DNA from: Planctomycetota bacterium | GTDB lineage: Bacteria > Planctomycetota > UBA8108 > SXIK01 | Reading direction: 5' to 3' | Length of the DNA stretch: 64,000 bases | Assembly (NCBI GenBank): GCA_965223265.1 | Contig: OZ244999.1 | Coordinates: 3,680,001-3,744,000 of the forward strand | Shown: positions 60,307 through 64,000 of the stretch, one piece after another | Numbering within the stretch: the stretch's first letter is position 1 | How the letters are laid out: each line of letters starts with the position of its first letter | Program-made: the position numbers and the translations under genes | The notes under the pieces: generated by a model | Told to the model about the DNA's origin: nothing | What the model saw: the letters and a program-made list of their open reading frames with translations, nothing else | Databases searched by the model: none

Positions 60307-60573
60307 GGAGCGGCATAGACGACAGCGGGTGTCGATTCGCTGTCGCTCAGATGAGAGGTGGTTGCACTCTCATCGGCGGCGGCGCGCTTAAGGAAGAATC
60401 GGAGAGAACGAATTCCATCACGTCGCCATTGAAACGTGGCGACATCAACCCGCGAGATCGCAGAGGAATCGGCACTGGCTAGGGCCCGCGTCAGGCGGTG
60501 CATATGCCCGGTCGAAACCTTACTCTTCCATGCGATTCTTCCCCGCCAGGTACCCGAGGCGAAACTGACCCGC

Positions 60574-61692
60574 ATGAAAGTCTTGATGATTCCAGATTTC
60601 TCGGCGGGGAATCCTTACCAGGTGCTCCTCAAACGTGCACTCGAGCAGCACGGGTCGGAAGTCGCCTTCGGTCAGTTCGACAGGTTCGCCGGTGCCGTTT
60701 TACGCCCAGCTCTACGCCACGGGTGGCCGAAGGTGCTCCACTTGCACTGGATCCACACCCTGATCATGGGGCGACGCCCATGGATTCGACGCGTCAAAGC
60801 CATCGAAACGATCGCCGAACTTCTGCTGGCAAGACTCCTCGGACGTAAGGTCGTCTGGACGGTTCACAACGTTACCGGACACGAGACAGACCACGCCGAC
60901 GAGCTCGAATTGACGTTCTATCGCTGGGTTGTTCGCGTCGCCAGCGGAGTCATCGTCCACACCCAACACGCCAAGGCAGCTGTGTCGACGGCCTACGGCC
61001 TAAGCCGCCGCTGCACGGACAAGATCCAAGTTGTCCCTCACGGTCACTACGCCGACTGGTACTCAAAAACCGTCTCCCGTGCGGACGCCCGCGCACAGCT
61101 CGGCCTCGCTGAAGACGAACGCGTTGTACTCATCTTCGGCGCGGTCCGCCGCTACAAGGGCATCGCCCGATTCATCGAGCGATTGGGACCGAATCGAAAG
61201 ACGCAGATTCGAATCGTTCTCGCGGGGAATCCTGGTGACGAAGAGATCGCCAAGCAGATGCATCAACTAGCGGCGAGTGAAGAGCGCGTAGTGTTGCGGC
61301 TCGGATTCATCCCTGACGATGAAGTCCAGGTACTGTTTCGCGCCGCGGACATTGTCACTCTGCCGCAGTCTAGATACTTGACTTCCGGAAGCCTGCTCCT
61401 AGCGATGTCATTCGGGTGCCCGCTCCTCCTCTACGATCATGCATTCGCTCGCGAAGTCGTGGGCGACTACGGCGCTATCTACCTTGACGAGGATTCTCAG
61501 AGCACGATCTGCGAGGAGCTCGACAAAGTGAGCGCCGCCGAGCTCGCCAGAATGGGGGAGGCCAACCTGGCAGCGATCGACAGTTTCGGTTGGGACGCCA
61601 TCGGCGCCAAGACTCTCGCGGTTTACGGCAAGAGCGTGCCCGCAGCCGTAAAGCCGAAGCGCTCTCCGCAGGAGTCGTCGTCGCCGACGTAG
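60574..61692 (+). CDS. Glycosyltransferase family 4
   Basis: GNPYQVLL, LHLHW, VWTVHN, VPHGHY, FGAVRRYKG, TSGSLLLAMSFG. Confidence 0.87.
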   Translation: MKVLMIPDFSAGNPYQVLLKRALEQHGSEVAFGQFDRFAGAVLRPALRHGWPKVLHLHWIHTLIMGRRPWIRRVKAIETIAELLLARLLGRKVVWTVHNVTGHETDHADELELTFYRWVVRVASGVIVHTQHAKAAVSTAYGLSRRCTDKIQVVPHGHYADWYSKTVSRADARAQLGLAEDERVVLIFGAVRRYKGIARFIERLGPNRKTQIRIVLAGNPGDEEIAKQMHQLAASEERVVLRLGFIPDDEVQVLFRAADIVTLPQSRYLTSGSLLLAMSFGCPLLLYDHAFAREVVGDYGAIYLDEDSQSTICEELDKVSAAELARMGEANLAAIDSFGWDAIGAKTLAVYGKSVPAAVKPKRSPQESSSPT

Positions 61693-61943
61693 GTCGGTGG
61701 TGGGGCAGGGGCGAACGTCTTTTAGACGCAAGCACGAACAGCGTGGTCGATCCTTTTGTGTGGCACCTATGAGGGGGAGGTGTGAGTTGTGGGGTGACAC
61801 TGTGAAAACTTTCTCGCTCGGCGAAGAATCTCGCTCTCGTCGCTGGGTGATTGTTGTGAAACACCAACGCAGGTGCGCGTCAGCACGAGGAACGCGATTT
61901 GCTTGTTCGTCTGCACAACTTTAAGAATGAGAGGACGGCAATC

Positions 61944-62090
61944 ATGATGCACGTTGACGAACCGAGTACGCCGCCCCAGCAAACCCCCGCCCCAGACACG
62001 GCGACAGCTCGGCTCCTCGTTGACGAGTACGAGGAGCCGAAGCTGGAGCCGCAAAACAAGGAAGAAGAAGGGGATTTCTGGTGTGACTAA
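61944..62090 (+). CDS. Putative RiPP precursor peptide (48 aa)
   Basis: SD GAGAGGA; MMHVDEPSTPPQQTPAPDTATARLLVDEYEEPKLEPQNKEEEGDFWCD contains a YxxPxL RRE-recognition motif; its stop overlaps the PqqD-like gene. Confidence 0.65.
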   Translation: MMHVDEPSTPPQQTPAPDTATARLLVDEYEEPKLEPQNKEEEGDFWCD

Positions 62091-62409
62091 CGGCGAGGCT
62101 GTGACCTATCAACTCTGCCCTAACGCCATCGTTTGGCGCCTCGAGGCGCCGGGAGTCTTGGTCTACGACATTTCCAGGGACCGCGTTTTCAATGGCAATC
62201 GCACGGCGCAGATGATTCTCGAAGGTTGTGAGAGCGAAACGCCAATCACGGAAATCGCTGCCCAACTCAGTCGCCGCTTTCAAATCCCCGTCGCGCGCGC
62301 TGACACCGACGTCTGTCGTTTCATGCAGCAGCTTGCCCGCTTCAATCTCGTTCAACCGGTGGAGCGAAGTCATGGAGCCGCTGAATGCCCCGGTCAAGGT
62401 CAGTATTGA
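62083..62409 (+). CDS. PqqD-family peptide chaperone (RiPP recognition element)
   Basis: VLVYDISRDRVFNGNRTAQMILEGCESETPITEIAAQLSRRFQIPVARADTDVCRFMQQLARFNLV is a canonical PqqD/RRE pattern. Confidence 0.85.
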   Translation: MTNGEAVTYQLCPNAIVWRLEAPGVLVYDISRDRVFNGNRTAQMILEGCESETPITEIAAQLSRRFQIPVARADTDVCRFMQQLARFNLVQPVERSHGAAECPGQGQY

Positions 62410-62740
62410 TCTGACCTACCGCTGCCCTCTCCGTTGCAGGCACCGCCGCGCCGACACTGGAATGGCTCCCAACTCCTCCGGGGACGAATTGCGACTCGAC
62501 GACATCCGTGCCGTTCTGGAGGATTTGGGACGTATGGGCGTCTTCCGGGTCGCGTTCAGCGGCGGAGAGCCTTTTCTTCGTCCCGACATTGTGAAAATTC
62601 TAGGCCATGCGGCGAACGTCGGGGTCGGGAGAGCGTTCGTCTCAACTTCCGGCATGGCGCTGGACGATCGCAAAGGGCACGCGCTTCGGTCGCTTCGGTG
62701 CGGCTCGCACGCCCGAGCCGTTTTTGCAGTCTTAGCCTAA
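62372..62740 (+). pseudogene. Truncated PqqE/MftC-like radical SAM enzyme
   Basis: APVKVSIDLTYRCPLRCRHR (third Cys of CxxxCxxC is CGC/Arg at 62444-62446), FSGGEPFLRPD, STSG; stops after 122 aa with no continuation in other frames. Confidence 0.8.
62701..62725 (+). terminator. Terminator-like hairpin at the radical SAM breakpoint
   Basis: CGGCTCG-CACGCC-CGAGCCG followed by TTTTT. Confidence 0.5.
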
Positions 62741-62864
62741 CAGCCCGTACTGTTAGGGAACCGATTCTGGAATTCAATCGAAGGGTTCTCGGCGCGAAGT
62801 CGGGTATTTTTGAGACGAACGATTCACTCCACGAGCCTCGAAACCCAGGGATACGGATCTTGCC

Positions 62865-64000
62865 ATGAAGGAACTTCTTTCGAGGGGGCAGTTCCTGTTC
62901 CCGGTCTGCTGCAGCGTCGTTCTCTCCTCTTTCGCGCCCACGATCGCGGATGACCGTGCGAGCCCACGCGGCGTCATCAGACCTTCGCTCGTCCGCCTTC
63001 AACCCGGTGAGACACGAGCCTTCAAGGTGGTGACCCTCGCCACGCGTCTGATGGCGGCGCGCTTGGTCGAAAACGTCGAGTGGTCCGTCAACCACATCGC
63101 TGGCGGTAACGACGAGATCGGTAGAATCGACGGCGCCGGGGTGTACACGGCACCAGGAAAAGTCCCAACGCCGCACGAGGTGCATATCGGCGCGAAGACG
63201 AGTGACACCGCCAACCGCTACCTCTTTGCCACCGTCCTCCTCGGCAAACCGCAACCTGCCTACAAGCTTCTGTGGAGCTGGTCCGAAGTGCCTGAGCGCG
63301 ATGGCCGTCTCGACAAGCCCCACGGCATCGCGTTGGACGTGGACGGCAATCTCCTCATCGCCGACGAGCATGCTTCGCGCGTTATTCGCTACACTCCGAG
63401 AGGCGAGTACCTCAGCGATCTCGGTGGGGGCGAAGGCAGCGAGCGTGGACAGTTCACGAACCCCCGCGAGGTCAAGATCGACGCGGAAGGACGCATCTTC
63501 GTCACCGACAGCAAGGGCGACCGTCCACGCATACAAGTTTTCAGCCGCGACGGTGAGTTCCTGCGCATTTTCGCGGCGAAGGGCACGCGACCTGGCATGA
63601 TTCTTCGCGCCCATGGGATGGCCTTCGATCAAACGCAGCGACTCTTCGTCGTCGACGTGGATAACATGCGCGTGAACGTCTACAGCCACGCGGGCGAGTT
63701 TCTCTACGACTGGGGAAAAGACGGCCCAGACGTCGGCGATTTCAACGCACCGCACGGGCTCGTGGTGGACCCAAGCGGCGACGTCTTTGTCAGCGGCTAC
63801 TACGGCCCGACGCAGAAATTCGATGCTGAAGGAAAGTTCCTCTTCGCTTTTGGCCACGGAGACCCGCCCGATGGCCCCGTCTACTTTCACTCCATGGCTG
63901 GCGACCAGTGGGGGAACGTCTATCTCGCGGTTCGCAACAAGCGTGGCTACGGTGGAGCCGTGCAAACGGATGGCGGTCAACCAGCGTTAAGCATCGTCAA
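62865..64000 (+). CDS. Secreted NHL-repeat beta-propeller protein with N-terminal Ig-like domain (3'-partial)
   Basis: Absent from the ORF track because it has no stop in the window. MKELLSRGQFLF...WSVNHIAGGNDEIGRIDGAGVYTAP...LDKPHGIALDVDGNLLIAD...GQFTNPREVKIDAEGRIFVTD...GDFNAPHGLVVD. Confidence 0.85.
   Translation, partial: MKELLSRGQFLFPVCCSVVLSSFAPTIADDRASPRGVIRPSLVRLQPGETRAFKVVTLATRLMAARLVENVEWSVNHIAGGNDEIGRIDGAGVYTAPGKVPTPHEVHIGAKTSDTANRYLFATVLLGKPQPAYKLLWSWSEVPERDGRLDKPHGIALDVDGNLLIADEHASRVIRYTPRGEYLSDLGGGEGSERGQFTNPREVKIDAEGRIFVTDSKGDRPRIQVFSRDGEFLRIFAAKGTRPGMILRAHGMAFDQTQRLFVVDVDNMRVNVYSHAGEFLYDWGKDGPDVGDFNAPHGLVVDPSGDVFVSGYYGPTQKFDAEGKFLFAFGHGDPPDGPVYFHSMAGDQWGNVYLAVRNKRGYGGAVQTDGGQPALSIV

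Follow-up and report, generated by a model that had tools for sequence, protein, structure and literature searches.

A radical SAM peptide family with an acidic-flanked tryptophan core, present as a probably non-functional copy in a Planctomycetota genome

The 64,000-nucleotide stretch of a Planctomycetota bacterium genome analysed here (contig OZ244999.1, positions 3,680,001 to 3,744,000 of the forward strand; hereafter the window) carries a compact cassette in which a precursor peptide gene, a gene for a PqqD-family RiPP recognition element (RRE; RiPP, a peptide made by the ribosome and modified post-translationally) and the beginning of a radical S-adenosylmethionine (SAM)/SPASM maturase gene follow one another with overlapping ends. 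We interpret this cassette as a dead copy belonging to a real RRE-dependent radical SAM peptide family that acts on a tryptophan core, a frame to which, taken as a whole, we assign a probability of roughly 0.7. Judged from its sequences, the family is real and undescribed. An earlier note on this DNA had described three overlapping genes in the order precursor, RRE and radical SAM; the order and the common strand are borne out, although the third gene is only a remnant, and the recurrence of the same order in six loci upholds the note's proposal of a peptide system built on an RRE and a radical SAM enzyme.

Five loci besides the window encode a peptide, an RRE and an intact radical SAM/SPASM enzyme in the same order, two of them on metagenome contigs (L068 and L143) and three in genomes of the Iainarchaeota phylum (L182, L183 and L184). 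An open reading frame (ORF) of 32-51 aa with a shared core lies directly upstream of the RRE in all six loci. The earlier note had named orthologous loci without a similar peptide as grounds for rejecting its proposal; each of the five related loci proved to carry one. L068 was recovered by scanning metagenome contigs with P0002, a 357-aa protein with Radical_SAM and SPASM domains that was found by a search among longer proteins. The L068 enzyme is 95% identical to P0002 and is preceded by a peptide (...EDEVYEKPQLHPQDEEREGDFWCD) and then by a PqqD-type protein whose GTG overlaps the peptide end exactly as in the window, where the peptide gene (MMHV...LLVDEYEEPKLEPQNKEEEGDFWCD) and the RRE gene share 8 nt, the GTG of the latter lying within the last peptide codons, and the RRE gene and the radical SAM ORF share 38 nt. 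L143 is a distant match from visibly AT-rich DNA (GC not computed) with an enzyme 31% identical, and presents the peptide MEITNEKYEEPEIAKFPAPGEEGKIAEFWIES, a PqqD-like protein and the enzyme in succession. The archaeal peptides (L182, ...KNGIFEAWVESSDL; L183, ...KKGIFEAWAESSDL; L184, MKVPEVDVGTYEKPVIEEIQNPHAQGFCREMWGEGST) are each accompanied by a short ORF of PqqD-like type and by a radical SAM/SPASM gene encoding 329-335 aa, with overlapping ends.

The defining feature of the six peptides is their C-terminal core. In a MAFFT alignment the sole invariant residue is a Trp, and with the register set from this Trp (W) an Asp or Glu stands at W-2 and again at W+2 in every peptide. The earlier note had anticipated a conserved YxxPxL...FWCD upstream of the RRE and a cross-link among Trp, Phe and Cys. 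What is conserved is a leader motif YE-x-P-x-[L/I] in four of the six peptides and the Trp in all six; Phe occurs at W-1 in three and Cys at W+1 in only two (window and L068), and the Trp/Phe/Cys proposal thus gives way to the invariant unit [D/E]-x-W-x-[D/E]. The tail Cys is absent from L143, L182 and L183 and stands at W-4 in L184. The tails read ...DFWCD, ...EFWIES, ...EAW[VA]ESSDL and ...EMWGEGST, with a variable extension of 0-4 residues beyond the second acidic residue, and a Pro is found at W-10 in four of the six. Among 38,126 control frames (stop-to-stop, at least 15 aa) from 180 unrelated loci, only six end in [DE]xWx[DE] followed by 0-6 residues, so the occurrence of this tail beside the RRE in every family locus, and in each of the five related loci in the ORF that immediately precedes the RRE, is not a matter of chance. 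At the DNA level, the E-G-D codons ahead of FWCD differ synonymously between the window and L068. We consider the invariant Trp with its flanking acidic residues to be the likely site of modification.

The leader and the RRE suggest how the peptide may be recognized. YxxPxL is a conserved leader motif of lasso peptides, in which it occupies positions -17 to -12 (PMC10368454, in the excerpt available), and use of a YxxP motif by a RiPP family other than the lassos is also on record (PMC13381572, excerpt). The motif Tyr stands at a fixed distance from the core Trp, 17 residues in the two bacterial peptides (window, positions 62028-62081, and L068) and 21 in the archaeal-type peptides of L143 and L184; given the lasso numbering, the Trp of the first two peptides falls at the place of lasso core residue +1. 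In L182 and L183 the sequence [K/R]LPIT takes the place of YE-x-P-x-[L/I]. The window RRE matches Pfam PqqD (5.7e-10, 39.8 bits against a cut-off of 23.4), whereas the NCBIfam PqqD model is matched at 31.7 bits, below its cut-off of 46, as is the lasso-PqqD model. A fold model of the RRE (predicted local distance difference test score, pLDDT, 82.7 from a 6-row alignment) has as its best PDB superpositions TbiB1 with its leader (5v1v_A; template modelling score, TM, 0.84 on target, root-mean-square deviation 1.6), PqqD (5sxy) and TfuB1 with its leader (6jx3_B; TM 0.85), and TfuB1 is also the best PDB match by sequence (1.5e-5, once spurious polyubiquitin rows are set aside). The idea that the RRE binds YxxPxL, put forward in the earlier note, thus agrees with the fold model, whose best superpositions are lasso B1 structures that include the leader. 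The likeness to lasso systems is confined to the YxxPxL-type leader motif (PMC10368454, excerpt) and to the nearness of the RRE to TbiB1 and TfuB1 in fold and sequence, for no lasso cyclase or B2 protease lies beside the RRE among the neighbours scanned and the tailoring enzyme here is a radical SAM protein.

The maturases form a group of their own. A HMMER search with P0002 against 1.84 billion representatives returned a detached top group (E 1e-97 to 1e-48, 40-59% identity) followed by a plateau from 1e-44. We built a quick 40-row IQ-TREE from the five peptide-linked intact enzymes, P0002, seven top representatives, 22 rank-picked lower ones and five paralogues from genome G441, without the fragments P0011, P0014 and P0015. 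It contains a 16-row group (SH-aLRT 98) that unites the five peptide-linked enzymes, P0002, the seven top representatives and three further rows, P0021, P0044 and P0035, the last being the same protein as the L184 enzyme. A 155-row FastTree that took in every listed representative with a length of 300 aa or more has these same 16 rows as its smallest clade around the five (support 86). Counted as clusters at 50% identity, the clade thus has 11 full-length members within the top 150 matches; more divergent members may lie below rank 150. Intact relatives match both Pfam Radical_SAM and SPASM and retain the CxxxCxxC motif together with eight further cysteines in the SPASM region. The enzyme model (pLDDT 88.1, 13-row alignment) finds its nearest solved folds in the peptide maturases SkfB, SuiB, PqqE, CteB and ChlB and in anSME, in agreement with a PDB sequence search.

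No curated model claims either protein. The NCBIfam scores of P0002 are far below the cut-offs for AhbD (134.8 bits against 500), WgkB (133.2 against 650), MftC (128.2 against 265) and PqqE (117 against 381), and the same holds for NirJ2 (133.2); the WgkB model is matched by 13 of 13 family members and DynA by 6 of 13, both far below their cut-offs. No NCBIfam model reaches its cut-off for the enzyme, none supplies a curated name for enzyme or peptide, and an ESM Atlas search returned generic radical SAM/SPASM clusters only. The window peptide matched no Pfam or NCBIfam family, and none of the six peptides matched any NCBIfam model at E ≤ 1. No description of the peptide family or of DFWCD, FWCD or EFWIE was found in a literature search whose scope excluded the supplements of cyclophane-synthase network papers, which might list the clade. 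The undescribed class proposed in the earlier note is therefore supported, as is its observation that the core resembles neither PqqA nor MftA, since there is no ExxxY core and no MftA-type Val-Tyr end.

In the window, the maturase is reduced to its N-terminal part. The ORF matches Pfam Radical_SAM (40.6 bits against 29.5) at profile positions 3-98 of 166 only and covers just the first ~105 positions of the NCBIfam PqqE, MftC and WgkB models. It is 59% identical to P0002 within P0002 residues 10-121, and in an 11-row alignment it ends just ahead of the conserved (R/K)LTFKISLDG block, with ~110 of ~350 residues kept and the SPASM domain missing. Where P0002 has CPLRCRHC the window reads CPLRCRHR, giving CxxxCxxR; the third cluster Cys is missing in the window alone and is kept by the other ten of the 11 aligned sequences. 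The earlier note had rightly called the gene a fragment but had missed both the loss of this cluster ligand and the absence of two thirds of the length. A tblastn search of P0002 against positions 62001-64000 detected no further maturase piece downstream, and a P0002 search of the whole 9.18-Mb genome, in which peptide and RRE are single-copy by a genome-wide search, detected no maturase remainder, only paralogues that align in part and with no more than 39% identity. Contigs from four public runs span positions 61800-63000 in one piece with 0 differences, which indicates that the truncation is no obvious assembly slip, the four runs representing two samples of one study that may be this genome's own source. 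As far as the data go, the truncation is real. Because the enzyme lacks the third cluster Cys, most of the barrel and the SPASM domain, the window copy is probably non-functional.

These features lead us to propose a mechanism for the intact members of the family. The RRE would grip the leader at YE-x-P-x-[L/I], as lasso B1 proteins do, and present the C-terminal core to the maturase, which, equipped with its SAM cluster and two auxiliary SPASM clusters, would abstract a hydrogen from a side-chain carbon of an acidic residue flanking the Trp. That carbon would then be joined to the indole ring, which would close a small C-C cross-link of the cyclophane type inside the [D/E]-x-W-x-[D/E] unit. 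For the window peptide and RRE a modified product would no longer be possible unless another enzyme substitutes. We advance the specific bond between Trp and Asp or Glu only tentatively, as a possible outcome. Published radical SAM/SPASM enzymes join aromatic rings to sp3 carbons within motifs of 3-5 residues (PMC11499958, PMC11851443, both in excerpt): triceptide synthases do so on aromatic-X-X motifs (PMC11499958, excerpt), and WprB, likewise a radical SAM/SPASM enzyme, links Trp to an sp3 carbon at WPR motifs (PMC11851443, excerpt).

The cyclophane synthases, comprising the triceptide synthases, WprB, WgkB and SuiB/StrB, offer a chemical parallel, being radical SAM/SPASM enzymes that, in the excerpted sources, link an aromatic ring to a sp3 side-chain carbon within motifs of 3-5 residues. 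The W-x-[D/E] present in all six peptides fits the aromatic-X-X pattern of the triceptides (PMC11499958, excerpt) and parallels the W-P-R of WprB (PMC11851443, excerpt), SuiB and ChlB are fold neighbours, and WgkB is one of the top NCBIfam matches. The differences are that the curated models are not reached, that the family enzymes form their own clade, that there is one C-terminal motif here and not a series of repeats, that acidic residues stand on both sides of the Trp, and that the bond is predicted. A discrete PqqD-family RRE with a radical SAM/SPASM enzyme also recalls the PqqA/PqqD/PqqE set of pyrroloquinoline quinone (PQQ) biosynthesis, PqqE being close in sequence and fold. PqqE links the acidic Glu to the aromatic ring of Tyr. 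In the present family Trp is the aromatic residue, at a spacing of x1 and not in an ExxxY arrangement, and both enzyme and RRE score below the cut-offs of the PQQ models.

Cofactor biosynthesis provides one alternative to the frame set out above: the peptide would be the source of a small molecule or redox cofactor, comparable to PQQ or mycofactocin, with the core of Trp and Asp/Glu being cross-linked, cut out and put to use within the cell. The order of short precursor, PqqD-type chaperone and radical SAM/SPASM enzyme, with action on residues at the extreme C-terminus of the peptide, is that of mftA-B-C (PMC7491314, excerpt). Of the named relatives, MftC and PqqE are two of those with the highest scores (best E for MftC 2.9e-67 among the 13 family members), and PqqE is a close structural neighbour with a TM of 0.80 on target. 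The cassette is retained in archaeal genomes of 0.7-1.0 Mb, the cassettes share no neighbouring gene for a transporter or a leader peptidase, a glycosyltransferase-type gene adjoins the cassette in both the window and L184, and a nitrilase-like amidase adjoins it in L184. Against this, the best family member reaches only ~228 bits (converted from its E-value) where the MftC cut-off is 265, and no MftD/E/F-type or PqqB/C-type homologues were seen among the neighbours scanned, nor any other pqq gene. The glycosyltransferase genes of the window and L184 share no homology, and the family peptides lack the Val-Tyr end. Because the tail extends a variable 0-4 residues beyond the core, MftC-type chemistry on the C-terminal residue becomes less likely. 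The distribution is moreover too sparse for a general cofactor, with carriers in 3 of 215 genomes of one phylum and none in samples of four other phyla. We regard a cofactor role as improbable. Its boldest form would add, next to PQQ and mycofactocin, a third type of redox cofactor or signalling molecule derived from a peptide; such a molecule would be made through a Trp-Asp/Glu C-C link, be retained even by DPANN archaea of the Iainarchaeota phylum with their reduced genomes, and have moved between archaea and bacteria. We consider this a long shot; no report of a Trp-Asp/Glu C-C link made by radical SAM enzymes was found in the literature examined.

The remaining alternatives concern the bond, the activity of the window copy and the peptide itself. 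A sulfur-to-carbon link of the sactipeptide or ranthipeptide type, or a Trp-Cys link, using the Cys of F-W-C-D comes close to what the earlier note proposed; the Cys does lie between Trp and Asp in the window and L068 peptides, and the thioether-forming maturases SkfB and CteB are among the nearest solved relatives. The family nevertheless has no conserved core Cys donor, and chemistry that requires Cys cannot be the conserved reaction when several tails are devoid of it and L184 carries its Cys at a different position, so that a thioether is unlikely as the common reaction and we hold this alternative to be very unlikely. That the window cassette still works, whether through another radical SAM/SPASM enzyme acting in trans or through a function of the unmodified peptide and RRE, is compatible with the intact peptide and RRE reading frames, with a 122-codon remnant free of internal stops and frameshifts, and with the presence of other radical SAM paralogues in the genome. 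None of these divergent paralogues falls within the family clade, however, there is no second copy of RRE or peptide, and RRE-dependent maturases are normally encoded next to their RRE in RiPP clusters; continued activity is accordingly quite unlikely. The view that the short ORF is a chance frame in GC-rich DNA, with only the RRE and the radical SAM remnant being real, could appeal to the 60.6% GC content of the window and its many spurious long ORFs. It is already contradicted by homologous peptides with the same motifs in the same position at five other loci spanning 21% to about 60% GC, by the rarity of the tail pattern and by the synonymous changes in the conserved tail codons, and it can be given next to no weight.

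Several points weigh against the RRE-dependent, Trp-directed family with a dead copy in the window that we favor. The family is seen with its context at only six loci, and since L182 is closely akin to L183 and the window has its nearest relative in L068, these amount to about four independent lineages. Genome context has been read for one of the 11 full-length clade representatives (P0035, through L184). The Tyr of the leader motif is missing from two of the six peptides, L182 and L183, and RRE-leader binding is a prediction. The NCBIfam scores place the enzyme at no smaller distance from known Trp cross-linkers than from other radical SAM/SPASM enzymes, and the type of bond is one that we infer, no product having been seen. 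Finally, the window peptide and RRE genes are still intact, which leaves room for residual function or very recent loss.

If the proposed reaction is correct, the family would give the radical SAM enzymes that act on peptides a new substrate motif, one Trp with an acidic residue on either side, and perhaps also a new bond type, in a minimal three-gene set that is easily tested in E. coli. It is uncommon for a RiPP system to span GC-rich bacteria and archaea with ~1 Mb genomes, as this family does, which suggests that its function merits retention or that transfer is frequent. As the window locus is a relic, it says little about the present chemistry of its own organism.

The distribution of the cassette is patchy. 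Of 215 genomes searched in the phylum containing a Candidatus Iainarchaeum metagenome-assembled genome, 3 carry it, all three being 0.7-1.0 Mb in size. NCBI places this phylum in the kingdom Nanobdellati, which we take to be equivalent to DPANN. Word-based protein searches returned, in one case, only the window's own RRE and, in another, only the window peptide and the L068-like P0004. Scanning genome contigs with P0002 gave 60 loci with 0 family members, and viral contigs gave two loci, both irrelevant. An RRE search in 60 relatives of the window organism did not find the family and yielded one weak match, to a different system (L007). With an RRE profile, 40 of 400 other sampled genomes of the window's phylum matched at E ≤ 1e-5, and no peptide was present in the loci examined (19 non-self loci by script, with L146 in full; 27 weaker places were left out). 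With a radical SAM profile, 27 of 401 genomes in the phylum of genome G437 matched at 205-238 bits, with no peptide in the 12 of 28 places examined; 1 of 401 matched in the phylum of G1056, this being a fused-RRE sister enzyme with another peptide, and 0 of 401 in the phylum of G1057. The patchy spread across domains, combined with local decay, would fit occasional horizontal transfer and loss.

Table 1. Features of the cassette and its neighbours (coordinates are positions in the window).
Feature	Position	Strand	Basis or remark
Shine-Dalgarno-like GAGAGGA, 8 nt 5' of the peptide start codon	61929..61935	+	sequence reading only
Precursor peptide gene, 48 aa, acidic leader and C-terminal core	61944..62090	+	ATG 61944, TAA 62090; ORF reading
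Leader motif YEEPKL (YE-x-P-x-[L/I]), probable RRE-binding site	62028..62045	+	in 4/6 family peptides
Core D-F-W-C-D, instance of family [D/E]-x-W-x-[D/E]	62073..62087	+	W, W-2 and W+2 kept in 6/6 peptides
PqqD-family RRE gene, GTG start, 108 aa, apparently intact	62083..62409	+	Pfam PqqD, fold model
Radical SAM/SPASM maturase remnant, 122-codon ORF, ATG start, N-terminal ~110 residues only	62372..62740	+	homology to P0002
CGC (Arg) at the expected third Cys of CxxxCxxC	62444..62446	+	sequence reading; Cys in the other 10/11 aligned sequences
GT4 gene upstream of the cassette	60436-61692
NHL-repeat gene downstream of the cassette, running off the window end	62865-63998	+

The cassette has a GC content of 0.58-0.62, equal to the 0.606 of the window, and a scan of the locus for promoters and terminators gave nothing above shuffled controls; no RNA data set containing the locus was listed. 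A link to the upstream GT4 or the downstream NHL-repeat gene, which the earlier note had entertained, was not sustained: no homologue of either lies beside the cassette in the five other loci, whose neighbours are unrelated (L068, for instance, is flanked by a DUF2298 membrane protein), and the GT4 gene shows no similarity to the glycosyltransferase-like gene of L184. The NHL-repeat protein partially matches ScyF, a scytonemin model with a cut-off of 350, at 102.6 bits, and its gene is overlapped by a 474-codon ORF on the opposite strand (62556-63980) that is probably spurious in this GC-rich DNA.

Neighbouring genes at the other loci also drew our attention. In L184, a nitrilase-like CN_hydrolase gene lies upstream of the cassette (L184:242-1045) and a weak Glycos_transf_1 gene overlaps the maturase stop codon (L184:2493-3530); the two could be tailoring genes of that one locus. 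A small HxsC-like radical SAM gene stands beside the cassette in L143 (L143:4721-5581, minus strand, 286 aa) and L183 (L183:32-937, minus strand, 301 aa), that is, in two of the four AT-rich or archaeal loci. The two proteins are 40% identical to each other and score 75-81 bits against the NCBIfam HxsC cut-off of 268, and the enzyme may be a second maturase of the L143/L183 branch.

Related arrangements were also encountered. L168 (G441:C122:2400-9600), from an Iainarchaeum-type genome, contains four tandem radical SAM/SPASM genes, each with an N-terminal RRE-like extension, and these fall outside the family clade. Small upstream ORFs accompany fused-RRE sister enzymes at L167 (L167:1513-1632, ...FPTFNVPMCSETSLMPGASFCAELPKRK) and L188 (L188:2793-2891, minus strand, ...SRLWFDFSTSNRIGGKYWI), and these look like separate peptide families. 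The best non-self RRE match in the window's phylum, L146 (G107:C9:27477-30713), adjoins a 320-aa HPr-kinase-like protein and a methyltransferase-like ORF, both judged by eye from sequence. L007 (G048:C267:4220-7477) lies in a genome from the same class as the window and has a PqqD-like gene of another kind, then a radical SAM/SPASM gene of 346 aa and a downstream ORF that contains PPYDAPAV, forming another uncharacterised cassette.

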